Shown here in pieces: positions 22,349 to 64,000 of a stretch of 64,000 nucleotides of DNA. The notes under the pieces were generated by a model, which saw nothing but the letters and a program-made list of their open reading frames with translations, searched no databases and was not told where the DNA came from. Numbering within the stretch: position 1 is the first letter of the stretch; each line of letters opens with the position of its first letter. Position numbers and translations under genes: made by a program. Origin of the DNA: Mycobacteriales bacterium (GTDB lineage: Bacteria > Actinomycetota > Actinomycetes > JAFAQI01); the NCBI GenBank assembly GCA_035547035.1, contig DASZVL010000013.1:66503-130502 (forward strand). The letters are read 5' to 3'.

Positions 22349-23206
22349 TCAGCCGTTGAGCCAGCCGGTGATCAACCAGTGAGCGATCGAGGTCGGGGGC
22401 GGCAGGATCGCATTCTCGGTGACCAGCTCGTCGCGGGTGAACCAGCGCACGTCTTCGAGCTCGTGGTCGCGGGTCGCGACGTCGCCCCCGACCACCCGCG
22501 CCTCGTAGCCGAGCATCAGCGACTGCGGGAACGGCCACGGCTGGCTCGCCTGGTAGGCCACCTCCTCGACGAGTACGCCGGTCTCCTCACGGACCTCGCG
22601 GTGCACCGCCTGCTCAGCGGACTCGCCCGCTTCGACGAAACCGGCAATCGTCGAGTAGCGGCCGCGTGGCCACGACGGCTGCCGGCCCAGCAGCGCGCGA
22701 TCTCCGCCGTCGTGCAGCAGGACGATGATCGCCGGATCCGTTCGCGGGAAGTGCTGCGAGCTGTCGACGTCGCACACCCGTGACCAGCCGGCCTGGGTGA
22801 TCCTCGTCTGGGCACCGCAGCGGGGACAGAACTGGTGTGAGGCGTGCCAGTTGCCCAGCGCGACCAACGTGACCAGCAAGCCCGCCTCGAGGTCTGACAA
22901 CGCGGCCCCGACCTCACGCAGACCCAGCAGCCGAGCGCCGAGCACGTTGCGCGGCGTACCGGTGGAGCCCCAGTAGGCGACCCCGTCGTCGCCGACGCCA
23001 AGGAGAACCCGCTCCCCCTCGCCGTCCCACGACGCGGGGCTGACGAACCGGAGCTCGGGACCGCCGTCCTCTGCGACCATCGCCCGGCCGTCGGCGTCGA
23101 GGACCAGCAGCTTGCCCGTCTCCCACGCCTCGGCAAGCCACTCGGCGTCGTCCCGCCGCTGTGCCGCACGATCGACCGCCGTGCGCGACAGCGCGGGAAT
23201 GCTCAC
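22349..23206 (-). CDS. nudC: NAD+ diphosphatase NudC (Nudix)
   Basis: Zn ribbon CPRCGAQT...C..D, Nudix box [23 protein letters not shown]; start ATG overlaps the adnB stop (ATGA). Confidence 0.9.
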   Translation of the reverse strand: MSIPALSRTAVDRAAQRRDDAEWLAEAWETGKLLVLDADGRAMVAEDGGPELRFVSPASWDGEGERVLLGVGDDGVAYWGSTGTPRNVLGARLLGLREVGAALSDLEAGLLVTLVALGNWHASHQFCPRCGAQTRITQAGWSRVCDVDSSQHFPRTDPAIIVLLHDGGDRALLGRQPSWPRGRYSTIAGFVEAGESAEQAVHREVREETGVLVEEVAYQASQPWPFPQSLMLGYEARVVGGDVATRDHELEDVRWFTRDELVTENAILPPPTSIAHWLITGWLNG

Positions 23207-26200: not shown

Positions 26201-26469
26201 AGACACAAGCGGACCCGCTCAGCCAGCTCAGCGGCTGCCTTGTTCGTGAAGGTCACGCCAAGGATCCGGTCCGCCGGCACCGCGTAGTGCGCAACCGCGT
26301 GGACGACGCGCGCCGCCATGACCATCGTCTTGCCCGAGCCCGCGCCTGCGATGACGAGCTGTGGCTCGAGCGGAGCGGTGATGACCGCCATCTGCTCGGC
26401 GGTGAAGTCCTTCCCGAGCAGGTCACGCAGGTAGGACCCGTCGGCCGTCGGCCGGATGCGCGCGCTCAC
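23203..26469 (-). CDS. adnB: AdnB-like helicase-nuclease subunit (UvrD-like motor plus RecB-like nuclease)
   Basis: Walker A IAGAGSGKTMVMAARVVH, UvrD helicase motifs, C-terminal PD-(D/E)XK nuclease GRIDAIY...DVIDFKTGK; start set to GTG 26469 overlapping the adnA stop (GTGA); six-frame ORF extends spuriously to 26709. Confidence 0.85.
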   Translation of the reverse strand: MSARIRPTADGSYLRDLLGKDFTAEQMAVITAPLEPQLVIAGAGSGKTMVMAARVVHAVAHYAVPADRILGVTFTNKAAAELAERVRLCLAALPARSDVEDHEDLPTVATYNSYAAQIVRDHALRIGREPGATLLTEAVQWQLAMRVASRAPGPFPNLDWTTPYVAEMVVALAGDLSDHLCTADAVRRHDAAVRRAVEELAKPLAWAKKMVSMTLARDELLTLVSLYSEEKARLDLIDFGDQVALACAVAEASTEVATIERERYQVVVLDEYQDTGVAQRVLFSTLFGDGHAVTAVGDANQAIYGWRGASASNLSRFSEHFGVRGKQVAAMPLMTSFRCDGRILAVANVVATPLHDSLVRKARSRLVLPGLRAVAGRDDAGEVSIARLPTAHDEADWLAQRIVAVMQAGTPAGQIAVLGRRRTDFPRLHQAMVLRDIPVEVVGLGGLLAMPEVSDIVATLTLLADGTANASAVRLLTGPRWRIGVRDMAAIGRRAGHLARLRVVEQPGTDDGLVIDSAEEAPADEPAVKQGLNEVLAQATSTADPVEAPSLLEAIESPGPPAAYSPEAYERLARFVAEIRRLRRLVGQPLVDLVTEVIAASGLDVEVEAGDAALAAARLANIHAFLDVTAQFNGIDGEADLVAFLAYLKAAADNERGLDLGAVSDADTVKLMTIHAAKGLEWDVVAVPGLVDQVFPTRLSRSSWVTGAAVLPFACRGDSEDLPVLRAYETTADEKAFKEECKSDSDDEERRLAYVAFTRARHRLWLSAYTWIATRKDPCATSVFLTEVAELGEPTVSVDVWCEMPEDATANPIVEAGVIDIAWPALPDPAETARRRAAAGLVEQARGALRPMVEVAGDDAGVAADWRRDTALLIDEAHRRRSRTIAVAVPARLTTSQVVALARDEDAFAAALARPVPSRPQPQARRGSRFHQWVEGLYSVAGAALLDPDDLPGAGDEELSDAELTGLQEKFLASGWAQRIPVKVEAPFEMTVGGRLLRGRIDAIYPTDGGGFDVIDFKTGKQPSGADFEAAALQLSIYRLAWADLAGVAPEVVTAGFLYVRDSHVERPRHLLSHDELAVLLSGSTVTA

Positions 26470-29400
26470 GACATGACCTGCGAGCCTTCGTCGGTTGCCG
26501 GGCACGAGGTCCGGAACCGGCAGTAGCCGCAGCCTTCGTTCGCTCTCGCCGGGAACGTCTCGGTGCGAATCCCGCCGGCGATGCCGTCCACGAGGTCGTC
26601 GACCCACTCGTCGCCTGCCTCGAGCGGGTCCTGTCGCTGCACCTTCACGGCGCCGCGAACCGACTTTCGCAGCTGCACCAGCTCCGCGCCGCCCGGGGTC
26701 GTCGACCAATCCTTGAACGCGCCGTGGCGGGTGACCAGCTGGTAGACGCCGAGCTGCGCGTCGGTCTTCACCCGCTCGTCGCTCGGAGGGTTGCGGCTCG
26801 TCTTGAGGTCGACGACGACGAGCCCGCCGTCGGCGTCGAGCTCGATGCGGTCGGCGCGACCGCGTACGACGACGTCGTCACCAACGGCGACCTCGAAGCC
26901 GACCTCCGCACTCGCGCACTCACGGTCGTTGAGGGCGTGCCAGGCGAGGAACCGCTCCAGCGCCGCGCGCGCCTCGACGTGGTCGCGCACCGCCTGCCAC
27001 TTCGCGTCGTACGGGAGCAGGTGCCAGACCTCGTCGAGGCGCTCGACCAGCACATCGATGTCAGCGGGGAGCTCGCCGACGACCACCGCCTCGGCGAGCG
27101 CATGAACGATCGACCCGAACCCCTGCGCGGTCGACGTCGACTCCGCCGCCTTGGCTTCGCGGTCGAGAAACCAGGCCCGCGGGCATCGGTCGAAAGCCGC
27201 GACGGCCGACGCGGACAGCTCGATCGGGCGGTCCGGGTCACGCACGGGTGCGGCGCCGGGAGTCGGCTCCGGCAGTCCCCACCAATGGTCCGGCGAGGCG
27301 GTCGGGACCAGCGGCGTGCCGTCCTCGTCGACCGCATCGGCAAGGTCGGCAAGACACTCTGCGGCCACCTGGCGGAGGCCCTCGCTGACGTCCGGGTCAC
27401 GCAAGGCCCGTCTCAGCCGCGCGACGAGAGACCCGACCGACAAGATCCCGGCCGTCGGGGTCACGGCGGCAGGGAGCACGACGCCGGTCTCCGTCAGCAA
27501 CCGCGAAGGGCGCTCTGCGAGGTCGTCGGTGCCCGACGTGGCGGTGAGCACGAGCCGCTTGCGCGCGCGGGTGACCGCGACATAGAAGAGGCGGCGCTCG
27601 TCGGTCAGCAGCGCGCCCGCGTCCGGCCCGGCCCCTGGCGAGTCCAACGCCAGGCCGTCGGCATCGAGCAGGCTGCCGCGCCGGCGCAGGTCGGGCCAGA
27701 CCGCCTCTTGCACGCCGGCCACGACGACGAGGTCCCACTCCAGGCCCTTGGACCGGTGAGCGGTCAGCAGGCGCACCGCGCCGAGCGCGCCGGCCTTCTC
27801 TTCGTACGGCGACGCCGGGATCTCTTGCGATGACACCTCGGCGAGGAGCGCACCCACCGTGGCCCTCGGCTGCTTGTCCTCCAATCGGCCCGCGAGCTCG
27901 AACAGAGCGAGGACTGCGTCGAGGTCGCGGTCAGCCGCCCGCCCCTCGGCGTCAGCCGACATCGCAGCGGCGCCGAGCCGGCGCGCCCAGTCCGAGCCGT
28001 CCCACAACGCCCACAGCACCTCTGCCGGGCTGCCGCCGCGTCGCTGCACCCCTGTGGCGGCGTCGAGCAAGCGCGTCAGTCTCACGACGGGCGCCGCGAT
28101 CCAGTCCTCGATCAGCGACGTCGCGGACGGGTCCTCCACCGCCTCGGCGATCAGCCTCGGCGACGGACGAGCGAGTCCGTCGTTCTCGATCCGGTCGAGC
28201 TCGCGCAACCGGCGACCCAGAGCGCGCAGCTGCGACGGCGTCGCGCCGGCCAGCGGGGACGTGAGCAGCATGCGCGCGATGTCCGGCGTCATCGGCTGCG
28301 CCGGGCGGACCTCTCGACCGACTGGTGCGCGCTCGCCGCGGGTCCGCTCATCGACGATCTCCAGTGCGCGCAACAGCGGTGCCACGGCGGGATCACGGGA
28401 CAGCGGAAGCTCGTCGGCGGCGACCGACACCGGGATGCCGGCCGACACCAGCGCCCGGCGAACCGTCGGGATGCTGCGGACACCGGAGCGGACCAGCACC
28501 GCCATCCGCGACCACGCGACGCCGTCGACCAGATGCGCACGGCGCAACAGGTCCGCGATGCCGGTGACCTCGGCCGCCACCGAGGCGTACAGCCGGATCT
28601 CGGGTGCCGCGTCGTCCGTCCCGGCGGCGCGCAGGTTGCGATGTGCTTCGCGCTTCGAGGTCAGCCGGCCGAGGGGGAGCTTCGTCGCGACCGCGCGCGA
28701 CAGCTTGACGAGCTCAGGACCCGAACGCCGGCAAACCTGGAGCTCGGTGACCGCAGCGGGCCGTCCGTCAGCCGTGCGGAACCGGTCCGGGAACTCGATG
28801 ATCCCGGTGACGTCGGCGCCGCGGAAGCCGTAGATGGACTGGTCCGGATCGCCGACCGCGACCAGCAGTCGTCCGTCGCCGGCCAGCATCCGCAGCAGCT
28901 GTTCCTGCGACGGGTCGGTGTCCTGGTACTCGTCGACGTACACCGCCTTGTACTTCTGGCAGACCGAGCTCGCGGATCCGGCGAGCAGGTCGAGGGCACG
29001 GTCGATGACACCCGAGTAGTCGACCTCGTTGCGAAGCGAGAGGACCTCGAGGTACTCCGCGAGAAAGTCGCCCGCGGCGACCCACGCGGGTCGGCCATGC
29101 GCCCGGCCGCGGGCGCGCAACGCAGCCGGGTCCAGGCCGCGCTCGCCGGCCCGGTCGAGCACATCGCAGACCTCTTTCGCGAACCCGCGCAGCCGCAGCG
29201 CCGGAGCCAGCTCGGCCGGCCATCTGGTCTTGCCCTCGCCGGCCGCGTCACCTTCGAGCAGCTCGCGCACCCGCAGTTCCCGCTCGGCCCCGGACAGCAG
29301 CCGCGGCAAGGTGTCACCGGGCGCGACGCCGTAGCTGCGCAGCAGCGAGTAGCAGTAGCTGTGAAAGGTCGCTGCGGACGGCTCGACGACCGTGCGGCCG

Positions 29401-29693
29401 AGCCGCCCGGCGATCCGGCTCCGCAGCTCGTCGGCGGCCTTCCGGCTGAACGTGAGGACGAGCACCTCGTCCGGCGCTGCGCCGCGTCGTACCCGCTCCA
29501 CTACGGACTCGACGAGCGTCGTCGTCTTGCCGGTGCCGGGTCCAGCCAGGACGAGCAGCGGACCCTGGTCGTGATCGACGACGCGCTGCTGAGTGGGGTC
29601 GAGCTCGGGAGCCGCGATCGGATCGACCGGTGGACGGACCAGTCGGTACGTCACGGCGGGCGGGCTCACGACGGCATCACAGCACGCCGGTAC
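26466..29693 (-). CDS. adnA: AdnA-like helicase-nuclease subunit (UvrD-like motor plus RecB-like nuclease with Cys cluster)
   Basis: Walker A LAGPGTGKTTTLVESVV, RecB-like nuclease GRADRIE...VVDLKTSR, C-terminal CGYCRFRTSC Cys cluster; start uncertain (GTG 29693 or 29654), ORF extends to 29870. Confidence 0.8.
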   Translation of the reverse strand, partial: VPACCDAVVSPPAVTYRLVRPPVDPIAAPELDPTQQRVVDHDQGPLLVLAGPGTGKTTTLVESVVERVRRGAAPDEVLVLTFSRKAADELRSRIAGRLGRTVVEPSAATFHSYCYSLLRSYGVAPGDTLPRLLSGAERELRVRELLEGDAAGEGKTRWPAELAPALRLRGFAKEVCDVLDRAGERGLDPAALRARGRAHGRPAWVAAGDFLAEYLEVLSLRNEVDYSGVIDRALDLLAGSASSVCQKYKAVYVDEYQDTDPSQEQLLRMLAGDGRLLVAVGDPDQSIYGFRGADVTGIIEFPDRFRTADGRPAAVTELQVCRRSGPELVKLSRAVATKLPLGRLTSKREAHRNLRAAGTDDAAPEIRLYASVAAEVTGIADLLRRAHLVDGVAWSRMAVLVRSGVRSIPTVRRALVSAGIPVSVAADELPLSRDPAVAPLLRALEIVDERTRGERAPVGREVRPAQPMTPDIARMLLTSPLAGATPSQLRALGRRLRELDRIENDGLARPSPRLIAEAVEDPSATSLIEDWIAAPVVRLTRLLDAATGVQRRGGSPAEVLWALWDGSDWARRLGAAAMSADAEGRAADRDLDAVLALFELAGRLEDKQPRATVGALLAEVSSQEIPASPYEEKAGALGAVRLLTAHRSKGLEWDLVVVAGVQEAVWPDLRRRGSLLDADGLALDSPGAGPDAGALLTDERRLFYVAVTRARKRLVLTATSGTDDLAERPSRLLTETGVVLPAAVTPTAGILSVGSLVARLRRALRDPDVSEGLRQVAAECLADLADAVDEDGTPLVPTASPDHWWGLPEPTPGAAPVRDPDRPIELSASAVAAFDRCPRAWFLDREAKAAESTSTAQGFGSIVHALAEAVVVGELPADIDVLVERLDEVWHLLPYDAKWQAVRDHVEARAALERFLAWHALNDRECASAEVGFEVAVGDDVVVRGRADRIELDADGGLVVVDLKTSRNPPSDERVKTDAQLGVYQLVTRHGAFKDWSTTPGGAELVQLRKSVRGAVKVQRQDPLEAGDEWVDDLVDGIAGGIRTETFPARANEGCGYCRFRTSCPATDEGSQVMS

Positions 29694-29703
29694 GACGGCA
29701 CAG

Positions 29704-30867
29704 TCATCTGTGTACGGCGAAGACGCTGACCTCGCGCAGCGAGGTGAAGAAGCCGCCGGTGTCGGTCTCGACGCGGACCGCGTCCACGCGCGTACCCGGC
29801 AGTGACGCGACCAGTACGTCGTCGGCGCTGCCGAACGGCTCCGTCGCGACGCGGGTGAACCGCCCGCCACCAGGACTGATCGACACTGTGCAGCTCAGAC
29901 ATCCGCGTACCACGAGCAAGGCGGCCGGTACCGGACGACGCAGGGTCACAGTGACATCGCGGTGGTCGTGCTGGGCAGACCCTGCGCACGGCCCGGCTGC
30001 GCATCGCGGGTCGTCAACCGGTTGCCAGTCCGAGTCGAGGACTCCGTCCGTCAGCCCGCACTTCGGCTGCCGGATCTGCTGACCGCGGCTGTCGGTGACG
30101 CTGCACCCAGCGCCTCGACTCGCGGGCACGTCCGTCCCTCGCAGCTCGAGACTGCTGCTGAACAACGCGTCCCGTCCGTGCAGCCGGCCGGACTGCGCCG
30201 TCGTCAGCAACAGGTGTTCGTCCTCGACGACGCGGGCGTCGTACCCGTTGGTGACAGTGAGGGCGTGGCCGTCAGCGACCGGTGGTGTGCCGGTCTCGGT
30301 CTCGAGTGAGGCTTCGAAACGCGACGGGCGATAACGGAGTGGAAGCGGCGGTGGCACGACGAAGCGACGGTTTCCGAGTGCCCGAACATGAGGCGCGCCC
30401 GCGGCCAACCGGATCCGCGCTTGCGTGGACCCGCGCCGCCAGGGCAGGACGACACTCGTCGCCACACGCGCCGGTCCACGAGCCGCGGCGGCGGTGATGT
30501 TGTAGTCGTCGTGCTCCGCGTTGCGTCCCGGCAGCGACAGCGCGAACGACCCATCTCGAGCCGTGAAGCCGCTGTCATGCGGAGCCGAGCAGCCGAGGAG
30601 GCAGTAGAAGCCGACTGTCGAGAAGGCTCCGATCGCGCGAACTGCCTGCTCTCCGCTCGACAGCGCGACTGAGACCACCACAGTCGCACCGGCGACCGGA
30701 TGGCCAGCCGTGTCGGTCACGAACCCGGTCACGGCACGGCCCTGCACCGGTTGCGCGTGCGGCGGCACCGACGGCGGTGTGGTTGCCGGAATCTGGCCCG
30801 CGGTTCGCGGCTGGGCGCATCCCGCCGCGAGCAGAAGCGCGGCAATCGAGGCGAGTCGCCACCGCAT
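29704..30867 (-). CDS. putative lipoprotein, function unknown
   Basis: Signal peptide with lipobox MRWRLASIAALLLAAGC; 387 aa Ser/Thr/Gly-rich, several Cys pairs. Confidence 0.5.
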   Translation of the reverse strand: MRWRLASIAALLLAAGCAQPRTAGQIPATTPPSVPPHAQPVQGRAVTGFVTDTAGHPVAGATVVVSVALSSGEQAVRAIGAFSTVGFYCLLGCSAPHDSGFTARDGSFALSLPGRNAEHDDYNITAAAARGPARVATSVVLPWRRGSTQARIRLAAGAPHVRALGNRRFVVPPPLPLRYRPSRFEASLETETGTPPVADGHALTVTNGYDARVVEDEHLLLTTAQSGRLHGRDALFSSSLELRGTDVPASRGAGCSVTDSRGQQIRQPKCGLTDGVLDSDWQPVDDPRCAAGPCAGSAQHDHRDVTVTLRRPVPAALLVVRGCLSCTVSISPGGGRFTRVATEPFGSADDVLVASLPGTRVDAVRVETDTGGFFTSLREVSVFAVHR

Positions 30868-41650: not shown

Positions 41651-42538
41651 CTACTCGACGACGTCGTCCACGTGCGACGCGATGTCGGGGGCGAGGCCCG
41701 CCCACGGCTTGAGACGTTGGGGCGCCGCCTGCTTCCCTTCAGAACAGTGCTCGACGAAGTCGCACCACTTGCACAGCGGTCCGGATCGCGCCGGGAACAA
41801 CGAATCCAGGGCGTCCGCGTCGCCGCCTGCCGCGTCGAGCTGAGCGTGCATCTCCGACGCCTCGATGCCGATCGACTCGATCCGCTCGAGATGGCGAGTA
41901 AGCGACGCCTCGGTGTACTCCCACTCGATCACCTCGCCGGTCGGCAAGTGGTGCAGCTCGACCCGGTTGCACGGCATCCGGAACATCCGCGCGGAGGCGG
42001 CGGCGTACACCGCGAGCGCCAGCGAGCCGCGGGCATCATCCGTGCTCAGCAGATGCCGTCCGGTCTTGTAGTCGACGACCACCAGCTCGTCGCCTCGCCG
42101 GTCGAGCCGGTCGATCCGCCCTGACAACGCCAGCCGCGGTGTTCGCATCGCGACGGTGCGCTCCACGCCCAGGGGCTCGTCGGTCGGGTCCAGCGTCGCG
42201 ACGTACCGCTCGACCATGTCGCAGGCGCGGTCACGCCACTCGTCAGCCTGCTGGTCGTCACGAAAGCCGTTGGTCACCCACTTCTCATGGAGCAGCCGGC
42301 GCGCCGCGGAGACGGTGCGGTCCTGGACCGGCAGCGCCCACCACCCGGCCAGCGCGGTGTGGACGGCGGCGCCGAGGGAGTTGTGCGCCCACGGCGGTCC
42401 CTTGGGCGGCGTCGGCCGGTCGACGTAGGAGAACCGGTAACGACGGGGACAGTCGAGCCAGGTGTCGAGCTTCGACGGCGTCGCGGTGAACAAGCGAGGC
42501 GGCAACTCGACGGCAAGCTCGCCTTGCACCGGGGTCAC
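41651..42538 (-). CDS. RecB-family PD-(D/E)XK nuclease (Cas4-like fold with C-terminal Cys cluster)
   Basis: VVVDYKTGR (D..EVK-type) nuclease motif; C-terminal CKWCDFVEHC Cys cluster. Confidence 0.7.
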   Translation of the reverse strand: MTPVQGELAVELPPRLFTATPSKLDTWLDCPRRYRFSYVDRPTPPKGPPWAHNSLGAAVHTALAGWWALPVQDRTVSAARRLLHEKWVTNGFRDDQQADEWRDRACDMVERYVATLDPTDEPLGVERTVAMRTPRLALSGRIDRLDRRGDELVVVDYKTGRHLLSTDDARGSLALAVYAAASARMFRMPCNRVELHHLPTGEVIEWEYTEASLTRHLERIESIGIEASEMHAQLDAAGGDADALDSLFPARSGPLCKWCDFVEHCSEGKQAAPQRLKPWAGLAPDIASHVDDVVE

Positions 42539-54279: not shown

Positions 54280-57200
54280 CTACTTGACGTGCACCTTCAC
54301 CACGTTGCTGTAGCCGCTACGAACCCCGGCACGGCCCTTGACCTTGGCCTGGAACCTCAGGTGCAGGCCCTTCGCGGCCTTCAGCGTGCCCTTGACCTTG
54401 CCCTTCGGGCCGGTGACGCCGGTCCCGATCTTGTGGCGGGCTCCGCTCTTGCTGAGCTGGTAGAAGACCACCTTCGCGGCAACGAGCTTCGGGTGGCTCG
54501 TGACGGTCAGCGTGAGCTTCTCCCGGTGGTGGGCCGCCCGCTTCTGGCTGACCGTAAGCGCCGGCTTCTCCTTCGTGCTGCTGCCGCCGCAGTTCGACGT
54601 GCAGCCGCTGCCGCCTGAGCCGAACGTCACTACCGCCGTCGCCGGGTTGTGGCTGCCGACGCCGCTCGGGGCGTTGGTGCTCGCGTCGAGCACCGTCACC
54701 GTGTCACTGCCGCTGCTTCCGGTGTCGAGGTAGTTGAACGACGCGGTTCCGGCCGAGCCGGTCGTCGCCGTGCCCGACTGACTGTTGCGGCCGCTGACGG
54801 CCCACTGGAGCGTCTGGCCGGACACGCCCACACCGAACTGGTCGACCACCCGACCGGTGAGGCTGACCTCGCCGCCTGGCGCGACCTTCTGGGACGCCGG
54901 AGTCACGCCGACCGCCGCGGGGTGAGGCGCCTGGAACGTCGCCACTGCCGTATCCGGTCCCAGGCCGCCCTTCGTCGGGTCGCCCACGCTCGCCTGGACG
55001 GTGACCTTGTTGCCGGCAGCCGGGCTGGGCACGCTCACGACGAACAGCGCGTTGCCCTTGGCGTTGGTGTTGACCTGCGTCGCGGTCGTGGTGGACCCGC
55101 TCGGCGAGCCGCTCATCACGAACGTCACGGGAATGTTCGCCAGCGCAGCGTTGCTCGCGTCAGCGACATGCGCAGCGAAGATGATCGACTGCACGCCGCC
55201 ACTGCCTGTCGTGACGGTGCAGGCCGGGACGATCTGATTGGCGTCACTGGTCAGCTCGTCCGGGCAGCCGAACGTCAGAGTGCTGCCGGCCGGCGGAAGT
55301 GCCTGAACCGTGACCGTGGTGGTGGTCTGCGGGTCATTCGTGGCCGGAGCAGTCTCGTTGGCCGCCAGCGGGGAGAAGAACGTCACGTGGTCCACACCGA
55401 CGTTCTGGTTGTTGATCAATGAGCACTTCGCCTGACCGAACTGGTCGGCGGCCTGGCAGGCGACCGCCTTCGACGTGGCGTCCGGGCCCCCCGACGCGAC
55501 GACGTAGGAGACTGCCGCACCCGGCAGCGGTGTGCCGTTTGCGTCCTGCACGAGGACCGTGAACGTCGCCGTGCCGCCTTGCGCGATCGTCGGGTTTGCC
55601 GGCGTCACCGTCACCGTGTGCGCGGGACCCGGGGTCACGACGGTGAGCGTCTGGTTCGAGCTCACCTTGTTGTTGGCGCTGGTCGCCAGCGTCGTCTGGG
55701 CGAAGACGTTGACGGTTCCGGCGGTCTTTCCGCTGATCCCGACGATGATCTGGCCGGGATGCGCCGGGTCCTGAGCCGAGGTGCTGTTGATCGTGAGGGT
55801 GTCGGTCCAGGTCGGGTTGGTCAGCGGCGGCAGGCCCCCGCTCGACTTGACGCTGTTCGTCGAAGACTCGGTGGAGCCGCCGGGAACAGCGCACGTCGAC
55901 AGCGATGCCGCCGGCGCGCTGGCTGCCGTGCCGAGGCCCTGCGTGGCGACGATCGCCACCGGGTACTGCACGCCGGGTGCAACGGTGACCGTGTACGCCT
56001 GGCAACCGCCAGTGGCGATCTGCGCCTGACCTTGACCGGGCGAGAGGTCCGGGGCGAGCGTCACAGACGACGGGTTCGCAAAGGTGATGGTCACGGTCGC
56101 CTTCTGCGATGCAGGAAGCGTCGTCGGGTCCGTGACAGTCCCGCTCGGGTCGTTGTAGATCAGGACTGTGTCGGTTCCGGCGGTCCCGCTGTTGGCGACG
56201 TCGCAGACCCAGCTCGTGGTGCCGCCGCTGCTCGTGCAGGCGTGCGAGACATTGGCGCCGTCGAGATCCGATCCGGTGCTGGCCGTGACCTTGTAGCGCA
56301 CGTTGGGCGTCTGGGCGCTGCCGCTCGTGACGGTCACGTTGATCCGGCCGATGCCGCTGCCGGAGTTGGCGGAGTCCTTGGTCGGGAACGTCGTCGCCGT
56401 CGGCGTAGCGGTCACCGAGTCGCCGAACGTCACGTTCAACGTCGTCATCGGCTCGGGAAGCGGGTTCGTCGGGTTGTTGCCGTCGTAGACGCCGTTGTTG
56501 TTGGCGTCGTCGAAGATCGTGAGGTGGTCGGTGCCGCCCGTCCCGTTGTTCTTCAAGGTGCACGTGAACGTCGAGCCGGTCTGCGGGCAGATCACGGAGG
56601 TCGTCGTGTGGTCCGGGTCGCCGGCCGGCGTGATGACGTAGTCGATGTTCGCGGTCTGACCGGACGGGACACCCGCGGCCGTGACCGTGATGGTTGCGGT
56701 GCTGCCGGCCGAGTGGTTCGGGCCACCCGCGTCCTGTGCCGTCAGGACCTCGAAGTTGGCGGTCGCGGTCGCCGACGGCTCGGTGCTGCTGGGCGCCTTG
56801 TTCTGGTCGAGGTCGTCGTAGACCTCGACCGTCGCCGAGTCAGCGCGGCCGTTGTTGACGACGCTGCACGTCCAGGACGTCATCGGGTCGGGGTTCTTGC
56901 CCGCGTCGTTGTCGGTGCAGGTGCCGGGGCTGCTGAACTGGCCGCCGACGATCACCTCACGCAGGTGCGGCTGCCAGGTCGCGAGCCTCCCTGTGAGCTC
57001 GACGTCGAAGGCCGCCGAGCCTGCCGGCGAGGTGTTGCTGCGCGGGAGAAGCGGCGTGGAGGTCATCCCCTCGAAGCTGATCGTGATGGTCGTCTTGGCC
57101 TCGTCGGTGTCCGCCTGGTTTGGCGTCCCGTTCGCCGAGTCGTCGTCGAAGAGCTGGACGGTGTCCGTGCCGGCGGTGCCGCCGTTGGTAAGCGGGCAGG

Positions 57201-57786
57201 CCCAGTTGGCGGGCTGGGTCTGCGACTGGGTGCACTGGATCAGCGTGCCGTTGTCCGGTCCGGCAGTGACCAGGCCCTTGAGGGCCGGGGTGGTCGAGGC
57301 GCCCGTGAAGGTCACGTTGATGGTGGCCTTCTCGCCCGCGCCGTAGAGGTACGTCGGCGTTCCGGCAGGCGTGACGTTCTGGTCCGCCGTCGCCACCATC
57401 GTCTCGAAGCTGATCGCGGTAGGTGCCGAGGACACGTTCTGGGTGGGGTCGGTGACCACGACCTGGTCGGTGCCCGCGCCGCCGGTGTTGGTGAGCGAGC
57501 AGGTCGCGCCGCTCGCGCTGATGGTCGTGCAGCTGGCGCTCGGCGCGGCGTGGTCCGGGCCGCTCACCACGCTCAGGACGAGCGCGTCACCAGCCACCGG
57601 GTTCGTCACCGAGACGGTGATGACCGCGGTCTGGCCCACCGGGTACCGCGCCTGCTGACCGACTGCGGAGATGCTCTCCGAGCCGGCCGCCGAGGCGGCG
57701 GTGGCAAGGGGGACTGTCGACCCCAACGTGGCAGCCGCGATCGCCGCGACCGAACTCAGCCACCGCACCGCCCGCTTCGTGTGCAT
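54280..57786 (-). CDS. giant secreted repeat protein 1: Cys-pair/DxDxNG modules, Big_1-type Ig-like domain array, basic C-terminal domain
   Basis: Signal peptide MHTKRAVRWLSSVAAIAAATLGSTVPLATAASA; six or more modules C..C.[LV].N.G.AGTD.[VL].[IVL][FY]DD..NG; Big_1 signatures (VQDANGTPLPGAAVSY, VVDQFGVGVSGQTLQW); antisense frame is Arg-rich junk. Confidence 0.75.
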   Translation of the reverse strand: MHTKRAVRWLSSVAAIAAATLGSTVPLATAASAAGSESISAVGQQARYPVGQTAVITVSVTNPVAGDALVLSVVSGPDHAAPSASCTTISASGATCSLTNTGGAGTDQVVVTDPTQNVSSAPTAISFETMVATADQNVTPAGTPTYLYGAGEKATINVTFTGASTTPALKGLVTAGPDNGTLIQCTQSQTQPANWACPLTNGGTAGTDTVQLFDDDSANGTPNQADTDEAKTTITISFEGMTSTPLLPRSNTSPAGSAAFDVELTGRLATWQPHLREVIVGGQFSSPGTCTDNDAGKNPDPMTSWTCSVVNNGRADSATVEVYDDLDQNKAPSSTEPSATATANFEVLTAQDAGGPNHSAGSTATITVTAAGVPSGQTANIDYVITPAGDPDHTTTSVICPQTGSTFTCTLKNNGTGGTDHLTIFDDANNNGVYDGNNPTNPLPEPMTTLNVTFGDSVTATPTATTFPTKDSANSGSGIGRINVTVTSGSAQTPNVRYKVTASTGSDLDGANVSHACTSSGGTTSWVCDVANSGTAGTDTVLIYNDPSGTVTDPTTLPASQKATVTITFANPSSVTLAPDLSPGQGQAQIATGGCQAYTVTVAPGVQYPVAIVATQGLGTAASAPAASLSTCAVPGGSTESSTNSVKSSGGLPPLTNPTWTDTLTINSTSAQDPAHPGQIIVGISGKTAGTVNVFAQTTLATSANNKVSSNQTLTVVTPGPAHTVTVTPANPTIAQGGTATFTVLVQDANGTPLPGAAVSYVVASGGPDATSKAVACQAADQFGQAKCSLINNQNVGVDHVTFFSPLAANETAPATNDPQTTTTVTVQALPPAGSTLTFGCPDELTSDANQIVPACTVTTGSGGVQSIIFAAHVADASNAALANIPVTFVMSGSPSGSTTTATQVNTNAKGNALFVVSVPSPAAGNKVTVQASVGDPTKGGLGPDTAVATFQAPHPAAVGVTPASQKVAPGGEVSLTGRVVDQFGVGVSGQTLQWAVSGRNSQSGTATTGSAGTASFNYLDTGSSGSDTVTVLDASTNAPSGVGSHNPATAVVTFGSGGSGCTSNCGGSSTKEKPALTVSQKRAAHHREKLTLTVTSHPKLVAAKVVFYQLSKSGARHKIGTGVTGPKGKVKGTLKAAKGLHLRFQAKVKGRAGVRSGYSNVVKVHVK

Positions 57787-57977
57787 CGTGTTGCGCTCCT
57801 CCCGGAAAGCCTTCATCTGATCGGCTCTTCGTCGTAACCCCAGCGCACCGGTGCCCTGAAGCCCAGCAATGCGAATCCACCCAAATGGGCGGATATCCCA
57901 ACCGGGACATCATACGGGCGCGCGTCGCGCCACGCTGGGAAGGTTGGGCGGTTAGTTGTCACTGTCTCCGGCCGCCG

Positions 57978-60900
57978 TCAGGCCTTGACTCGGATCGACT
58001 TCGTCCGCGACTTCCCCGACCGCACGCCGGACTTGCCCGACACCTTCGCGCGGAACTTGAGCTTCTTGCCGACCTTCGCGTGGACGAACAGGTGCGCCCG
58101 TCCGGCCGAGCCCGTCCGGCTCACCCCGATCTTGTGGAAGTGCCCGAGCCGCTCGACGTAGTACGTCACCTTCGCGTGGGCCAGAGCCGGGTGGCTCGAG
58201 ACGTGGATCGTGACGACGCCCGCGTGAGAGGTCAGGCGGATGCCCGGGTGCTCCTTGGCCCCGCCCGCGACCGAGACGTTCAACGTGCCGCTGGGCTCGC
58301 CGCTGCCGGCGCTGCCGTTGTTGTTGACGTCGTCGTAGGCGAACACGTGGTCGGTCCCGCCAACGACCGGGGTGTAGGCGAAGAACGCCACGCCCTTCGG
58401 CGTCGTCGTACCGGACCCGGAGGCGGAGTTCGCTCCGGTGATCCGGAACCGGACGAGCTGACCGACCGCGGGGGTGCCGTCGGAGTTCGTCACGGTTGCC
58501 GCGATCAGCTCCTGGTCGCCGACCTTGCGCGGGCCGGCGGCCTGGACCACGACGCTGGTCGCCACGACCGGGGCGCTCACGGTGTACGTCGCGGTCGCGG
58601 TGCACGCGCCCGCGGTGGCAGCGGGCGGCGTGCCCTGGTTGGCAAGCTGGCCGCACTGGCTTCCCGCGCCCCCGGCGGAGATCGTGGCGACGACCGAGCC
58701 GGGCCCGCTGTCCGTCGCCGCGGTCGTGACCGTCACGCTCGCCGTACCGTCCGCGGCGGTCGTCAGCGTCGCCGACGACGAGCCCGCGATGTTGCCGGGC
58801 CCGCTCTGGGTGAACTGCAGTCCGACGTTCGCCACCGGGTTGCCGAAGGCATCCGTGACGGTGGCGGTGAACTTGCCCGAGGTCCCGCGGGTGATGGTCG
58901 TCGATGCCGGCGCGATCTTGATCGTGCGCGCCTTGTCGGACGTCGGCGTCTGGTAGGTCACCGTGCTCGAGGCGGTCGCCGAGTCGGCACTGGCGGTGAC
59001 GGTGTGGGCGCCCGACTTCGTCGACGTCACGTCCGCGAACGCAAAGCCTGCGGCATCCGCGGCGACGGTGACACTCGTCGTGCTCGTCGGTGTGAGGGCG
59101 CCCTGCTTGGCGACCTGGCCGTTCGACATGGTGAAGGTCACCGGCTTGCCGGCGAGCACCTCGCCGGTCGAGTTCTTCACGAGCGCACACACGGTGGTCG
59201 TGGTCCCGAGCGCGACGTTGGTCGCCGCCGTGTGGCCCGTCGCGGTGCAGGTGGCGTCCGACGTGCCACTCCCGCTCGTGTCGATCGTGATCACCGACGC
59301 GGCGGTCGAGCCGTTGACGTACTGCACGGTCGCGGAGCCGTTGAACGGGTGCGTGGTGTCGATGACGCTGATCGTGTCCGACGTGGACGCGGCGTTCACG
59401 CCGGTGTCGGTGTAGCTGATCGTCGCAGTGCCGGCGGGACCGGTCGTGACGGTTCCGCCCTTGCCGTTGTTGCGCCCCACCACGGAGTAGTTCAGGGCCT
59501 CCGACCCGGACACCCCGGCGCCGAACTGGTCGGTGACCTGTGCGGTCACCGTGACCACGCCGCCCTTCGTGACGGTCTGAAGCTGAGGTGTCACAGCCAG
59601 CGCGGTCGCCACTGGTGTCTGCCAGCTTGCGCTGGAGGTTCCGGCGGATGTCGCACCAACCTTCGCCTGAATGATCGCGCCGTCGCCGGCGGCCGGGTTC
59701 GGATCGTTGATCGTGAAGGTCGCGATGCCGTTCACGTCGGTCGTGGCGCTCCCGGACGGCAGGTTCGCCGCGCTGATCGCCTGACCACCGACCACCGCTG
59801 CGGTCGCGGTGAAGTCGACGATGGCACCGGAGACCGGCGTCCCGTTGTTCTTGAGGATCTCGGCGAACGTCACCGACTTCTGCGTGGTCGGCACGGTGCA
59901 GTTCTGGACGCCGGTGCCCTGGTTCGCACCGGCCAGCTGCTGGACGCAAGTGAGGGCATCGCTGGTGAAGGTGGGTTGCGCGTTGAAGACAGCGGTTGCC
60001 GTGGTCTGCGGCTCGTTCGAGTCCGGGCCCGTCGTGTGGTTGCCCGGCGCGTTGTTGTCCACCCAGAAAGTGATCGCATCGGTTCCGGGGCTGCCACCGT
60101 TCGGCACCGAGCATGTGGTGGTGCCGTCGGCGTGCGTGGTGCCACACGCCGCAGGGGTCAGGCTGTCCGGCCCGCTCGTGGTCTCACGGTTGACTTGGAC
60201 GCCCTCGATCGGGTTGTTGGTCGAGTCGGTGACGCCGACGGTGTAGGACGCGACGGTGCTGGTGTACTGCGTCCGGCTCGCCGGTACCGCGAGCAGCTTC
60301 GCCGCTCCCGCGACGCCGCCGACGCTCCAGTTCATCGGCTGGGAGCCGCTGATGTTGCCCGCGGCGGTAGCCGTCACGCTCCCGGGACCGGCGTTCCCGG
60401 CCGCAACGCCGATCTTGACCGTGCCGTCGCTGCCGGTCTGGACCGTCTTCGTCTGGCTGACCGTAAACGTGCCGTCGCCGTTGTCGGTAGCCCCGGTCCG
60501 CTGGTCGGCACCCGTCGAGCAGTCGGCGTTGAAGAACGTCACCTCAGGAGCGCTCGGCGTGCCGGTGACGGTCTGGTTCATGGTCACCGTGATCGGATCG
60601 CCGGCCGACGCCCGCCCCCCGGCGTCGGTCGCGGTGATCGTGTAGACGATGCAGGTTCCCGTGGTGGCGGAGTTGCTCGGGGCGGTGATGGTCACCCCGG
60701 CCGCCGCGCCCGAGAACGTCACGAGCGTGGAGGGCGACACCACGTCGGCGGGCGCGGGCGTCGCGTCGTCCACGCCGTCGTTGTTGTTGTCGGCCAACGC
60801 CTCGACCGTGTCCTGGCCGGCGCCGTTGGCGTTGCGCAACGAGCAGGTGGCCGTGCCATCAAGCCTGGTCAGGCACGGCGCTCCCGCGGGGAACGCGGTG

Positions 60901-61514
60901 CCGTCGGTGCCGCTGGGATTCGGGCCGCCGAGGTTCGTGAGCCGGATCAGCGGCGCATCCTGCCCGGCGACGACGGGCGAGTAGTGCACGTTGAGGGTCG
61001 CGGTGGAGCCGGCCGGCTGGTTGGTGTTCTGGCTGTTCGCGTCGATGGTGACCGACGTGTCGGTCGTCTCGGCGCCGGTGAGCGCAACCGTGGCGTCCGC
61101 GTGCTGCGCGCCGTTCGTGATGCGCAGCACGTCAGGGCCTGCCCCGGCGTAGACGTTGGTGAAGGTGCAGCTGCCGCTGAAGACGTTGGCCACCGGGGCC
61201 GTCTCCGAACAGCTCAGGGTCGGGTTGGGCCCGGCGCCGTCGGGGCCGCTGGCGAACGCGAACGTCGAGGCACCCGTCTCCGTGCCGTCCGTGGTGACGG
61301 TGTAGTTGACGGTCGCCGTGCCGCCGTGAGCCATCGTCGTGGTGGTGCCGGCGGGGTTGATCGTCACTGCCGTCGTGGCGGCCGCCGCCGTTCCGAGCGA
61401 CAGCGGAGAGGCCAGTACGGCGGTCGTCGCGCCGATCACCGTGGCGGCGGAGGCCCACCGCTTCAGCGCACGACGAAGACTCCCCGTACCGGTCATGTGC
61501 ATCCCTTCCGACAC
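57978..61514 (-). CDS. giant secreted repeat protein 2 (paralog): Cys-pair modules plus Big_1 array plus basic C-terminal domain
   Basis: Signal peptide; Big_1 signatures VTDQFGAGVSGSEALNY, VKNSTGEVLAGKPVTF, VTDAFGNPVANVGLQF, VTNSDGTPAVGQLVRF; C-terminal domain alignable to proteins 1 and 3. Confidence 0.75.
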   Translation of the reverse strand: MSEGMHMTGTGSLRRALKRWASAATVIGATTAVLASPLSLGTAAAATTAVTINPAGTTTTMAHGGTATVNYTVTTDGTETGASTFAFASGPDGAGPNPTLSCSETAPVANVFSGSCTFTNVYAGAGPDVLRITNGAQHADATVALTGAETTDTSVTIDANSQNTNQPAGSTATLNVHYSPVVAGQDAPLIRLTNLGGPNPSGTDGTAFPAGAPCLTRLDGTATCSLRNANGAGQDTVEALADNNNDGVDDATPAPADVVSPSTLVTFSGAAAGVTITAPSNSATTGTCIVYTITATDAGGRASAGDPITVTMNQTVTGTPSAPEVTFFNADCSTGADQRTGATDNGDGTFTVSQTKTVQTGSDGTVKIGVAAGNAGPGSVTATAAGNISGSQPMNWSVGGVAGAAKLLAVPASRTQYTSTVASYTVGVTDSTNNPIEGVQVNRETTSGPDSLTPAACGTTHADGTTTCSVPNGGSPGTDAITFWVDNNAPGNHTTGPDSNEPQTTATAVFNAQPTFTSDALTCVQQLAGANQGTGVQNCTVPTTQKSVTFAEILKNNGTPVSGAIVDFTATAAVVGGQAISAANLPSGSATTDVNGIATFTINDPNPAAGDGAIIQAKVGATSAGTSSASWQTPVATALAVTPQLQTVTKGGVVTVTAQVTDQFGAGVSGSEALNYSVVGRNNGKGGTVTTGPAGTATISYTDTGVNAASTSDTISVIDTTHPFNGSATVQYVNGSTAASVITIDTSGSGTSDATCTATGHTAATNVALGTTTTVCALVKNSTGEVLAGKPVTFTMSNGQVAKQGALTPTSTTSVTVAADAAGFAFADVTSTKSGAHTVTASADSATASSTVTYQTPTSDKARTIKIAPASTTITRGTSGKFTATVTDAFGNPVANVGLQFTQSGPGNIAGSSSATLTTAADGTASVTVTTAATDSGPGSVVATISAGGAGSQCGQLANQGTPPAATAGACTATATYTVSAPVVATSVVVQAAGPRKVGDQELIAATVTNSDGTPAVGQLVRFRITGANSASGSGTTTPKGVAFFAYTPVVGGTDHVFAYDDVNNNGSAGSGEPSGTLNVSVAGGAKEHPGIRLTSHAGVVTIHVSSHPALAHAKVTYYVERLGHFHKIGVSRTGSAGRAHLFVHAKVGKKLKFRAKVSGKSGVRSGKSRTKSIRVKA

Positions 61515-61751: not shown

Positions 61752-63995
61752 CTACCGCTTGACGTGGATCGACCGCGCCGGCGACGTGCCCGACGTCGTG
61801 ATCGACGTGGCGCTCACCTTCACCCGGAACTTGCGGTGCGAGCCGCGCTTCTCCGCGAAGGAGTGCGAGGCCTTGCCGCTGAGCGAGCCCGTCCGGTTGT
61901 GGTGGATCAGCACCCACGACCCGTGGCGCTTCACGTAGTAGCGCACGTTGGCCTGGAAGGCCTTCGGGTGCGTCGTGACGTGAACCCGCACGTGGCCAGG
62001 CGTCGAGCTGAGCGAGATCGACGGGTGCTCGATGCCGTGCACATGCCCGGTCGCGAACGCCTGCGGCTCGTCAGCCTGACGGATCTGGTCGTCGTTGGTG
62101 TCGACGAACGCCGCGAGGTGAACCGTGCCGTGGTGGGTGACCAGGATCGACACGTGGGTGTTGCCCAGCGGACCGGTCGTCGCGCTTGCAGCGGCCGTGT
62201 CCGCACCCTTCATGTAGAACCGGACGACCTGGTGGGCCGCCGGCGTGCCGTCGGAGTTCGTCGCGTTGGCCTCGATCCGCATGTGCGTACCGGACCTGAC
62301 GCTCTTCTCAGGCGTGATCGTCAGACCGCTCGGCGTCACCGTGGTGCCCACGGTGTACGTCGAGGTCGCGGTGCAGGTGCTCGCCGGCGTCCCGGTCGGG
62401 GCGCTCGAGCACTGCGTGCCCGTCGTGGCGATGGTCGCCGTGACGGAACCCGAGCCCTTGTCCGTCGCCGCCGTACCGAGCGTCACACTCGCGGTGCCGT
62501 CGGATGCGGTGGTGACCGAAGCGGACGACGCGCCGCCGATCGAGCCCGGGCCGCTCTGCGTGAAGCTCACGCTCACGCCGGGGACCGGGTTGCCGAACTT
62601 GTCGGTAACCGTGGCGGTGAACTTCTGCTGACCGGCCGGCGCCACCGTCGCGGTGGCCGGAGCCAACGCGATGGCGTAGGCCTGGCTTGCGGCCGGTCCC
62701 GCGTAGGTCACGGTGCCCGTGCCGCTCACGCCATCAGCAGTCGCCGTGACGGTCTGCGCGCCGGCCTTCGTCGAGGTGACGTCAGCGAACGCGACACCTG
62801 CGGCATCGGTCGTCGCCTGGTAGGTCGTGCCGCTGCTGCTGGTCAGCCCGCCATGAGCCGCCACCTGGCCGTTGCTGACCGTGAAGGTCACGGCCTTGCC
62901 CGCCAGCACCTCACCTGTCGAGTTCTTCACCACGGCGCAGACCTCGGTCGTGTGCTGCAGCGCGACGTTGGTCGCCGCAGTGTTGCCACTCAGGCCACAC
63001 GTCGCGTCGCTGACGCCGAGACCGCTCGTGTCAACCGTGACGGTGCCGGCCGATGTAGAGCCGGTCACGTAGTCGACCGTCGCGGTGCCGTTGAAGTGGT
63101 CAGTGTTGTCCGTCACCTGGATGGTGTCGGTCTTCTGAGTCGGCACGGTGCCTGCGTCAGTGTAGGTGATGGTGCCGTCGGCCGCCGCCGTACCCGTCTT
63201 GGCGTTGTTGCGCCCGGTGACGAAGTACGTGATGTTCGGCGAACCTGCCACCGCGGTCCCGAACTGGTCGGTGACCGTTGCCTTGACCGTCACGGTGCCG
63301 CCCACCTGGACCGTCTGCAGCGCAGGCGTGACCGTGAGGCCGGTGGCCGTCGGCGATGCCCAGTGTGCAGTGGCGGACCCGATGTTGGTCGCACCGACCG
63401 CCGCGGACACCGTGACGTTGTCACCGTTGGCCGGCGTCGGGTCATTGACGACGTACGTCGCGGTCCCGTCAGCACCGGTCGTCTTGGTGGCCGACGCCGG
63501 CAGGTTGGACCCGGTCAGGGTCGTGCCACCGAGCTTCGCCGAGGTCGCCGTGAAAGTGACCGGAGCGCCCGAGATCGGGTTGCCGTTGGCGTCCTTGACC
63601 GTCGCCGTGAACGTCACCGACGTGGTGCTCGTCGGGACGGTGCAGTCGGTCTGCGCGGTGCCCTTGTTGGCACCTGACAGCTGCTGCGTGCAGGTCACCG
63701 AGCTCTTCGCCGCAGACACCGCCGGCGCGGCGTTGAACGTCGCAGTTGCGGTGCCCTTCGGCTCACAAGTGTCGGCACCGCTGGTGTGGCTGCAGCCCGA
63801 GGCCGTGTTGTCCACCCAGAAGACGAGCGAGTCGGTGCCCGCCGTGCCGCCGTTGTGGACCGTGCAGGTGGCCTGACCGGAGGAGTTCGTCGTCCCGCAC
63901 GAGGTCACGGGAACGTTGTCCGGGTTGGTGGTGCCGGTCGTCGCCTCGTTGATGGTGACGCCCTGCACCGGGCTGGTGCCGTTGGTGGCGGTCAC
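61752..63995 (-). CDS. giant secreted repeat protein 3 (paralog, 5' end beyond window)
   Basis: Big_1 signatures VKDANGNPISGAPVTF, VTDQFGTAVAGSPNITY, VKNSTGEVLAGKAVTF, VTDKFGNPVPGVSVSF; long blocks about 80% identical to protein 2; same basic C-terminal domain. Confidence 0.75.
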   Translation of the reverse strand: MTATNGTSPVQGVTINEATTGTTNPDNVPVTSCGTTNSSGQATCTVHNGGTAGTDSLVFWVDNTASGCSHTSGADTCEPKGTATATFNAAPAVSAAKSSVTCTQQLSGANKGTAQTDCTVPTSTTSVTFTATVKDANGNPISGAPVTFTATSAKLGGTTLTGSNLPASATKTTGADGTATYVVNDPTPANGDNVTVSAAVGATNIGSATAHWASPTATGLTVTPALQTVQVGGTVTVKATVTDQFGTAVAGSPNITYFVTGRNNAKTGTAAADGTITYTDAGTVPTQKTDTIQVTDNTDHFNGTATVDYVTGSTSAGTVTVDTSGLGVSDATCGLSGNTAATNVALQHTTEVCAVVKNSTGEVLAGKAVTFTVSNGQVAAHGGLTSSSGTTYQATTDAAGVAFADVTSTKAGAQTVTATADGVSGTGTVTYAGPAASQAYAIALAPATATVAPAGQQKFTATVTDKFGNPVPGVSVSFTQSGPGSIGGASSASVTTASDGTASVTLGTAATDKGSGSVTATIATTGTQCSSAPTGTPASTCTATSTYTVGTTVTPSGLTITPEKSVRSGTHMRIEANATNSDGTPAAHQVVRFYMKGADTAAASATTGPLGNTHVSILVTHHGTVHLAAFVDTNDDQIRQADEPQAFATGHVHGIEHPSISLSSTPGHVRVHVTTHPKAFQANVRYYVKRHGSWVLIHHNRTGSLSGKASHSFAEKRGSHRKFRVKVSATSITTSGTSPARSIHVKR

Positions 63996-64000
63996 GGTGA

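Follow-up and report, generated by a model that had tools for sequence, protein, structure and literature searches.

What are the cysteine-paired modules that recur in the N-terminal halves of three large proteins encoded side by side in an uncultured Mycobacteriales bacterium (GenBank assembly GCA_035547035.1)? The stretch of DNA analyzed here (the window) comprises 64,000 nucleotides of contig DASZVL010000013.1 (positions 66,503 to 130,502 of the forward strand; G+C content, 68 to 71%), and its last 10 kb contain three tandem minus-strand genes, designated p1, p2, and p3, with a G+C content at third codon positions (GC3) of ~0.9. The p1 product is identical to HVV74969.1, a protein from a Mycobacteriales metagenome-assembled genome (MAG) that the Prokaryotic Genome Annotation Pipeline (PGAP) names "hypothetical protein." A preliminary description of this DNA, made from the letters and their translations, had noticed a repeated module with two conserved Cys residues and a run of Asp, Asn, and Gly residues and had not recognized it as a named domain. 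Our analysis indicates that the module does belong to a named domain family: it is most likely a divergent, probably disulfide-stapled subtype of the Big_1 (PF02369) immunoglobulin (Ig)-like domain of the intimin/invasin class, arranged in arrays within secreted surface proteins. We put the probability of this reading at about two-thirds (0.68).

The repeat itself is real. All nine peptides quoted in the preliminary description were found exactly, on the minus strand, at residues 94-123, 205-233, 315-343, 417-449, 536-559, and 796-824 of p1, residues 220-250 and 465-494 of p2, and residues 43-68 of p3. The range given for the modules (56200-57700) covers p1 residues ~39-539, i.e., modules M1 to M5, and leaves module M6 (55303-55605) and the modules of p2 and p3 outside. 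Anchoring on the second Cys, followed by alignment, delimited ten modules (six in p1, three in p2, and at least one in p3) of 93 to 122 amino acids (aa), in place of the ~90 aa first estimated. A hidden Markov model (HMM) built only from the modules of two orthologs outside the window yielded scores of 27 to 98 bits for the p1 modules, 27 to 30 bits for p2 M2 and M3, and 13.8 bits for p3, compared with a maximum of 8.7 bits among 900 shuffled proteins. The repeat is therefore far above chance. Taken alone, p2 M1 did not exceed the shuffle maximum with this outside-only HMM (6.0 bits); it scored 50.7 bits with a module profile that includes p2 M1 itself. The details of the earlier consensus were too narrow. 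Written as a regular expression, it matches only one of the ten modules (p1 M4), and the spacing between the two Cys residues, given as 5 to 9 residues, is 8 to 16 residues in the window and 7 to 18 across the wider family. The earlier observation is thus partly confirmed, being real but over-specified.

The assignment to Big_1, rather than to an unnamed fold, follows from a profile-profile comparison, a Pfam scan of family members, a chain of matches leading to intimin structures, and the predicted fold. Three profiles were used, representing the Cys-pair modules (A1), bona fide Big_1 domains retrieved by profile (A5), and the broader family (A3). The hhalign comparison of A1 with A5 gave a probability of 96.8% (E value, 2.2e-10) over 97 collinear columns, including the loop between strands F and G. 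The proteins from which A5 was built score 89 to 321 bits with Pfam Big_1 (e.g., 321 bits over 10 stretches in P0033), and their Pfam Big_1 stretches coincide with the profile matches (781-862 versus 781-879 in P0033 and 83-159 versus 70-168 in P0014). Among PDB sequences, A5 matched intimin (6tpl, E value of 1.5e-8; 1f00, E value of 1e-4), and A3 matched intimin (E value, 4e-9), FdeC, invasin, and the Big_1 domains of phage tail tubes. A Pfam scan of 87 diverse profile-retrieved domains identified 42 as Big_1, 20 as Invasin_D3, 17 as Big_3_5, and 1 as DUF11. Two window modules match Pfam Big_1 individually, namely, p1 M6 (E value, 7e-6; 26.5 bits) and p2 M3 (E value, 1e-6; 29.2 bits), both below the gathering threshold of 34.9 bits. 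In addition, the Cys-less domains of p1 to p3 are collinear with the Cys modules.

Structure prediction of one module, a check that the preliminary description had proposed, was performed with AlphaFold2 (AF2) on p1 M4 and yielded a seven-strand Ig sandwich (predicted local distance difference test [pLDDT] score, 90.8; predicted template modeling [pTM] score, 0.83). In an M3-M4 tandem model (pTM, 0.68), a single residue separates strand G from the following strand A. Foldseek searches with the tandem model retrieved arrays of Ig domains in tandem, among them CD4 D1D2 and D00-D0 and D0-D1 of intimin (E value, ~5e-4). Family assignment by single-module Foldseek was dropped, since that search shows a generic Ig fold and resolves no family. 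The module fold, as modeled, is an Ig-like beta-sandwich of ~100 to 110 residues. The loops of a seven-strand Ig sandwich fall into two groups, with B-C, D-E, and F-G at the N-terminal pole and A-B, C-D, and E-F at the C-terminal pole; in the modules, the E-F loop is a conserved N-x-G-x-[AG]-G turn.

The modules share with the Big_1 domains of intimin, invasin, and FdeC (PDB 6tpl, 6tqd, 1f00, 4e9l, and 5n40) a length of ~95 to 110 aa, a seven-strand sandwich, the arrangement in a tandem extracellular stalk, and a strand-by-strand pattern (...tATVtd..G.P..g..V.F.v..G........T...G.A...l......G...v.A.), and profiles link them to these domains at E values of 1e-8 to 1e-10. They differ from Big_1 in having a D-E Cys pair, an N-x-G-x-[AG]-G-x-D turn between strands E and F, a long acidic F-G loop, and a Pfam score below the cutoff. 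The Big_1 domains of intimin lack a disulfide at the D-E positions and have Ala and Val at the aligned Cys positions; the Cys pair is therefore not part of canonical Big_1. The preliminary description had allowed that the module might simply be a divergent Big_1 domain with the Cys pair as a known feature, and the first half of that suggestion holds, whereas the second does not. The host proteins differ as well. Intimin and invasin proteins carry an inverse-autotransporter beta-barrel, whereas Pfam scans of p1 and p2, which are actinobacterial, detected no IAT_beta barrel and no LysM domain; given the lack of a beta-barrel domain in these scans, the window proteins are not inverse autotransporters.

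The Cys pair had been proposed to form an intradomain disulfide, and this proposal is supported. The M4 model has Cys55 (C410) after strand D and Cys64 (C419) within strand E; a small bridge (57-58/61-62) sets the hairpin register at i+j=119, placing C410 opposite C419, and the tandem model has the same register (Cys 161/170, with 163-164 paired to 167-168). Among 311 related domains detected in 129 proteins, 287 contain an even number of Cys residues (0 in 100, 2 in 169, and 4 in 18 domains), and 24 contain an odd number. The two aligned positions are both Cys in 167 domains and neither is Cys in 97; the 49 apparent singles correspond to an alternative strand B-E pair (QHCVTATV...FCYTG), alignment shifts in two-Cys domains, and I-set-like false positives. 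The total number of Cys residues is even in p1 (18) and p2 (14) and in the visible part of p3 (10). Exported proteins of aerobic Actinobacteria are disulfide bonded and show a bias toward even numbers of Cys residues (PMC2823432). Because the two residues are opposed in the models, are co-present or co-absent across the family, and occur in an actinobacterial protein predicted to be exported, a structural disulfide closing the D-E hairpin is well supported as a prediction.

The run of Asp, Asn, and Gly residues, which had been likened to a calcium-binding loop, corresponds to the long F-G loop (residues 81-101 of M4 in the AF2 model). In relatives of the modules, this loop reads D-x-[DN]-x-[DN]-G-x-x-D-x-x-E-P, with the ligand positions spaced as in EF-hand-like Dx[DN]xDG loops (motif definition from PMC3123361), and it is matched over a short stretch by the beginning of Pfam SdrD_B (profile positions 6-31), the location of the EF-hand-like site of SdrD (PMC13174682). 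Loops were classified as calcium type by Asp or Asn at positions 1, 3, and 5, Gly at 6, a polar residue at 9, and an acidic residue at 12. Of the 311 domains, 108 have the 6-residue core and 88 have the 12-residue form. Within the window, the core D.[DN].[DN]G is present at three sites, p1 437 (M4), p2 242 (M2), and p2 1062 (a Cys-less domain), so that the [DN]x[DN]x[DN]G run is found in just two of the ten Cys modules (DANNNG in p1 M4 and DNNNDG in p2 M2). Every Cys module lacks at least one position of the 12-residue ligand pattern. Of the calcium-type loops in the window, that of the Cys-less domain at p2 979-1083 (DVNNNGSAGSGEP; D1, N3, N5, G6, and E12) is preserved best; at p2 1062 (DVNNNGSAGSGE), positions 1, 3, 5, 6, and 12 fit, but position 9 is Gly. 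The comparison with a calcium-binding loop is therefore partly supported, as regards homology to the loops of relatives, and does not extend to a complete ligand pattern in any window Cys module.

These relatives include Cys-less Big_1 repeats of metagenomic origin (P0007, P0013, P0032, and P0033; SGPN...GTDTI.AW.DxDxDG..D..EP), which were retrieved directly by the module profile and represent the same domain, sharing its G-T-D strand F and the position of its F-G loop. Cys-less and B-E relatives keep the canonical Dx[DN]x[DN]GxxDxxEP loop in 60 to 75% of domains, whereas in the window modules the D-E pair is accompanied by loops that are mostly degenerate. The share of domains with the core motif is 16% for D-E Cys-pair domains, 60% for Cys-less domains, and 75% for B-E types (counts uncorrected for relatedness), which suggests, at the level of sequence, that the disulfide and the calcium loop substitute for each other as stabilizers. 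EF-hand-like calcium loops are also found outside EF-hands, e.g., in the A-B loop of SdrD B (Rigden et al. 2011, PMC3123361), with the same ligand spacing and a strand-loop-strand context; in contrast, the putative site of the window modules occupies the F-G position of a Big_1 domain, and its pattern is incomplete in every Cys module. The view that the window F-G loops are ancestral, mostly decayed calcium-type loops is partly supported by these patterns. Ca2+ binding, if any, is likely to be left in a few modules at most (i.e., p1 M4, p2 M2, p2 979-1083, and perhaps p1 M2). The p3 module presents a separate variation, with a second Cys pair, C69/C78 (63762-63791), within its F-G loop (DNTASGCSHTSGADTCEP), which it has in common with P0025; a disulfide is predicted to close, in this module, the loop whose counterparts elsewhere are acidic.

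The same loops could instead serve a binding function. According to this alternative, the D-E and F-G loops (together with B-C) form a ligand-binding face resembling complementarity-determining regions (CDRs), braced by the disulfide and possibly using Ca2+ in a lectin-like manner, and the modules are adhesive, with paralogs diversifying specificity. The three loops do share one pole by Ig topology, the best single-module Foldseek matches are V-type domains (nanobodies; template modeling [TM] score, ~0.6), the D-E loop ranges from 8 to 16 residues between modules, and there are three to four tandem paralogs per genome. The conservation of the F-G loops among orthologs likewise points to constraint, yet it is also what speaks against a CDR-like role: the identity is 14-16/18 residues in M2, above that of the framework, and 9/12 in M4, at least equal to it, and these loops are therefore constrained and not hypervariable. 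The idea that the D-E and F-G loops are hypervariable in the manner of CDRs was rejected on the basis of ortholog identity equal to or above that of the framework. Moreover, the pole in question would be largely buried against the preceding module, the tandem model having no linker between modules, no diversity-generating element was seen, and the E values of the Foldseek matches exceed 0.01. We consider a binding face unlikely.

A function of the Cys residues as free thiols, binding a metal (Cu or Zn) or acting as a redox switch without a structural disulfide, is very unlikely. The two residues are close together in the hairpin and acidic loops are nearby, as such a role would allow, but no His, Met, or extra Cys partners are conserved around the pair, the proteins have an export signal and come from an actinobacterium, in which exported proteins are oxidized, and both the strict pairing of Cys residues and the alternative B-E pairs in relatives are typical of structural disulfides.

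The preliminary description had favored a new domain family unrelated to named ones, with its own fold and a signature of a Cys pair plus a calcium site. Several results weigh against our main reading, and some of them could be drawn on in favor of this interpretation. With Pfam Big_1, p1 as a whole scores 32.6 bits, below the threshold, and p2 (55.2 bits) and p3 (83.5 bits) exceed it through their Cys-less C-terminal domains and not through the Cys modules. No window Cys module reaches the gathering score, 8 of the 10 have no Big_1 match even at E values up to 10, and a search of NCBIfam returned nothing. The A1 profile of the modules alone found nothing among PDB sequences at E values up to 10, and hhalign of the modules with the window's own Cys-less domains gave a probability of only 34%. 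The single-module Foldseek matches are generic, the tandem model is moderately confident (pLDDT, 73), and the S-S distance and loop positions derive from strand register and Ig topology and were not measured. The incomplete ligand patterns described above belong here too, as does the fact that the anticorrelation between disulfide and calcium loop ignores phylogenetic relatedness. The family is also small: a word-index homolog search returned two orthologs only for the N-terminal half and nothing for the module alignment, and when 1.84 billion representatives were searched exhaustively by profile, 127 proteins (32 at E values of ≤1e-10) were identified. The Cys-pair subtype is rare and is missed by current Pfam and NCBIfam models. 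A new family is nevertheless largely refuted, and we regard it as hardly tenable, in light of the full-length alignment with bona fide Big_1 domains and its continuation to intimin structures, the individual Big_1 matches of p1 M6 and p2 M3, and the seven-strand Ig sandwich predicted by AF2. A divergent DUF11 (PF01345), CARDB, or cadherin-like domain, for which a Pfam search had been proposed at the outset, is the least probable identity of all, as the only such match is that of p1 M3 to DUF11 (E value, 0.01; 16.6 bits over 39 residues; cutoff, 24.6 bits), DUF11 accounts for 1 of the 87 family members compared with 42 for Big_1, and neither CARDB nor cadherin domains were detected in those 87 or in the window proteins and modules at any threshold used.

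If the modules are disulfide-stapled Big_1 domains, they would be joined without linkers to form the outer part of an acidic, Sec-exported, rod-like surface protein. Two Cys residues, one terminating strand D and the other within strand E, would be linked after export by the actinobacterial thiol-disulfide oxidoreductase system, and both the disulfide and the F-G loop, as traits specific to this lineage, would be located at the N-terminal pole of the module, toward the preceding one. Because strand G runs nearly straight into the next strand A in the tandem model, module n+1 may pack its stapled D-E hairpin and its acidic F-G loop on the E-F turn of module n, which would stiffen the junction. 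The product would be a rigid, protease-resistant acidic rod on the envelope, held by a basic C-terminal anchor and serving adhesion or surface architecture. Acidic Ca2+ sites at domain junctions stiffen adhesin rods such as SiiE (PMC5466336; PMC7718877), and the integrity of intimin is calcium independent (PMC7718877). The proposed rod would be comparable with the stalks of intimin and invasin and with SiiE, but its modules differ from intimin in combining a vestigial calcium-type loop with a probable disulfide. The BIg domains of SiiE and the cadherins resemble the window proteins in forming long Ig-like arrays with acidic sites near domain junctions; they differ in the sequence and position of the site and in the secretion route (type I secretion system [T1SS] or eukaryotic), and in the window proteins the disulfide would probably be the main stabilizer. 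The ancestral Dx[DN]x[DN]GxxDxxEP loop may have decayed as the disulfide took over most of the stabilization. We offer only tentatively, as a possibility that we consider somewhat doubtful, that a Big_1 subfamily of uncultured Mycobacteriales swapped an EF-hand-like Ca2+ site in the F-G loop for a hairpin disulfide in the D-E loop at the same pole.

The coordinates of the three genes and their domains are given in Table 1.

Table 1. Genes, modules, and terminal segments of the p1-p3 array (nucleotide positions within the window)
Feature	Position	Strand	Description
Gene p1	54280..57816	-	1178 aa; ORF (open reading frame) and translation, GC3 of 0.90, exact NCBI match, Pfam Big_1 in C-terminal half
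p1 signal peptide region	57682..57816	-	aa 1-45; ends ...ATAASA/AGSE (slash, predicted end), without lipobox Cys; predicted by reading the translation
p1 module M1	57403..57681	-	aa 46-138; Cys96/Cys106; short F-G loop TQNVS
p1 module M2	57070..57402	-	aa 139-249; Cys195/Cys207; F-G loop FDDDSANGTPNQADTDEA
p1 module M3	56752..57069	-	aa 250-355; Cys300/Cys317; longest D-E loop, 16 residues
p1 module M4	56422..56751	-	aa 356-465; Cys410/Cys419; F-G loop DANNNGVYD...; modeled by AF2
p1 module M5	56080..56421	-	aa 466-579; Cys527/Cys538
p1 module M6	55303..55605	-	aa 738-838; Cys787/Cys798; N-terminal half matches Pfam Big_1
p1 C-terminal basic domain	54283..54588	-	aa 1077-1178; pI (isoelectric point) of 11.5; presumed anchor; outside the repeat
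Gene p2	57978..61514	-	1178 aa; paralog of p1; three Cys-pair modules in N-terminal half, then Big_1 domains and basic C-terminal domain
p2 module M1	61077..61379	-	aa 46-146; Cys102/Cys116; weakest member
p2 module M2	60711..61076	-	aa 147-268; Cys214/Cys224; F-G loop DNNNDGVDD
p2 module M3	59982..60317	-	aa 400-511; Cys457/Cys468; matches Pfam Big_1 below cutoff
p2 Cys-less sister domain	58266..58580	-	aa 979-1083; calcium-type loop DVNNNGSAGSGEP
Gene p3	61752..63998	-	visible C-terminal 748 aa; N-terminus outside the window; paralog of p2
p3 Cys-pair module	63732..63998	-	visible aa 1-89, N-terminus cut by window end; Cys34/Cys45 and Cys69/Cys78

In p1, a signal peptide is followed by five Cys-pair modules, a middle domain of ~150 aa, the sixth Cys-pair module, two Cys-less Big_1-like domains, and a basic C-terminal domain. 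Judging from the translations, both p1 and p2 begin with a signal-peptide-like segment that leads directly into module M1. A twin-arginine translocation (Tat) signal was considered for p2 (LRRALKR), and the motif is not conserved in the homologs P0009 and P0010. The protein body has a pI of 4.3, and the C-terminal domains have pI values of 11.5 to 11.9. The basic domain ends all three proteins (aa 1085-1178 in p2 and aa 655-748 in p3); it is ~95 aa long and beta-rich, with a conserved pattern (HP.L..A.V.FY....G..H.IG...TG..G...), and recurs in at least 15 homologs. It had no match in a Pfam scan, gave weak PDB matches only (transthyretin-like sandwiches; E value, ~0.03), and is unrelated to Big_1 by hhalign. 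No LPXTG motif or transmembrane segment was found at this domain in p1, p2, or p3. It is a candidate cell-envelope anchor. A CxxxC mini-motif, GCTSNCGG (p1 aa 1067-1076; ~54589-54618), follows the last Big_1-like domain, precedes the basic domain, and is doubled in the orthologs P0002 and P0003 (GGCTTNCGGCTTNCG).

The paired Cys residues of the modules are not the only ones in these proteins, as had been stated; p1 contains extra pairs at 605/642, 851/866, and 1072/1076. The middle domains hold Cys pairs of their own (605/642 in p1 aa 580-737 [55606-56079] and 288/332 in p2 aa 269-400). Pfam has no match to the p1 middle domain and a weak, partial Big_1 match to that of p2 (E value, 0.003). 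Further pairs are situated at the N-terminal edges of Big_1 domains (851/866 in p1 and 523/539, 756/776, and 954/971 in p2).

A second Mycobacteriales MAG carries four such paralogs in tandem (array at L001 1-13673), and the genes that come after the array there are also found in the window, namely, pepA (M17 aminopeptidase) and genes for GlgC-like, HtrA, Mrp, and MgtE proteins. The tandem array of at least three paralogs occupies a conserved chromosomal position beside pepA, glgC-like, htrA, mrp, and mgtE. Elsewhere in the window, two adjoining genes encode large UvrD-helicase/PD-(D/E)XK nuclease proteins resembling AdnA/AdnB (23203-29894, minus strand), and a further stand-alone PDDEXK_1 protein is encoded at 41651-42538; these are ordinary actinobacterial repair genes with no relation to the Cys-pair modules.

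The analysis reveals no new fold, system, or mechanism, and the modules are a modest variation on a familiar theme. For three large "hypothetical" proteins, predicted to be at the cell surface, from an uncultured soil actinobacterium whose lineage is known only from metagenomes, the assignment provides a fold and a family (Big_1) for about half of the sequence. In practical terms, a dedicated HMM would improve annotation, and the modules, as small bacterial Ig domains stapled by a probable disulfide, are a candidate scaffold. They are also a candidate example of two interchangeable stiffeners of Ig domains, i.e., a calcium loop or a hairpin disulfide. The chief point of interest is the possible calcium-to-disulfide swap; if true, it would establish a subfamily new at the Pfam level, along with a new class of stiff rods that do not depend on calcium and are anchored by a novel basic domain.

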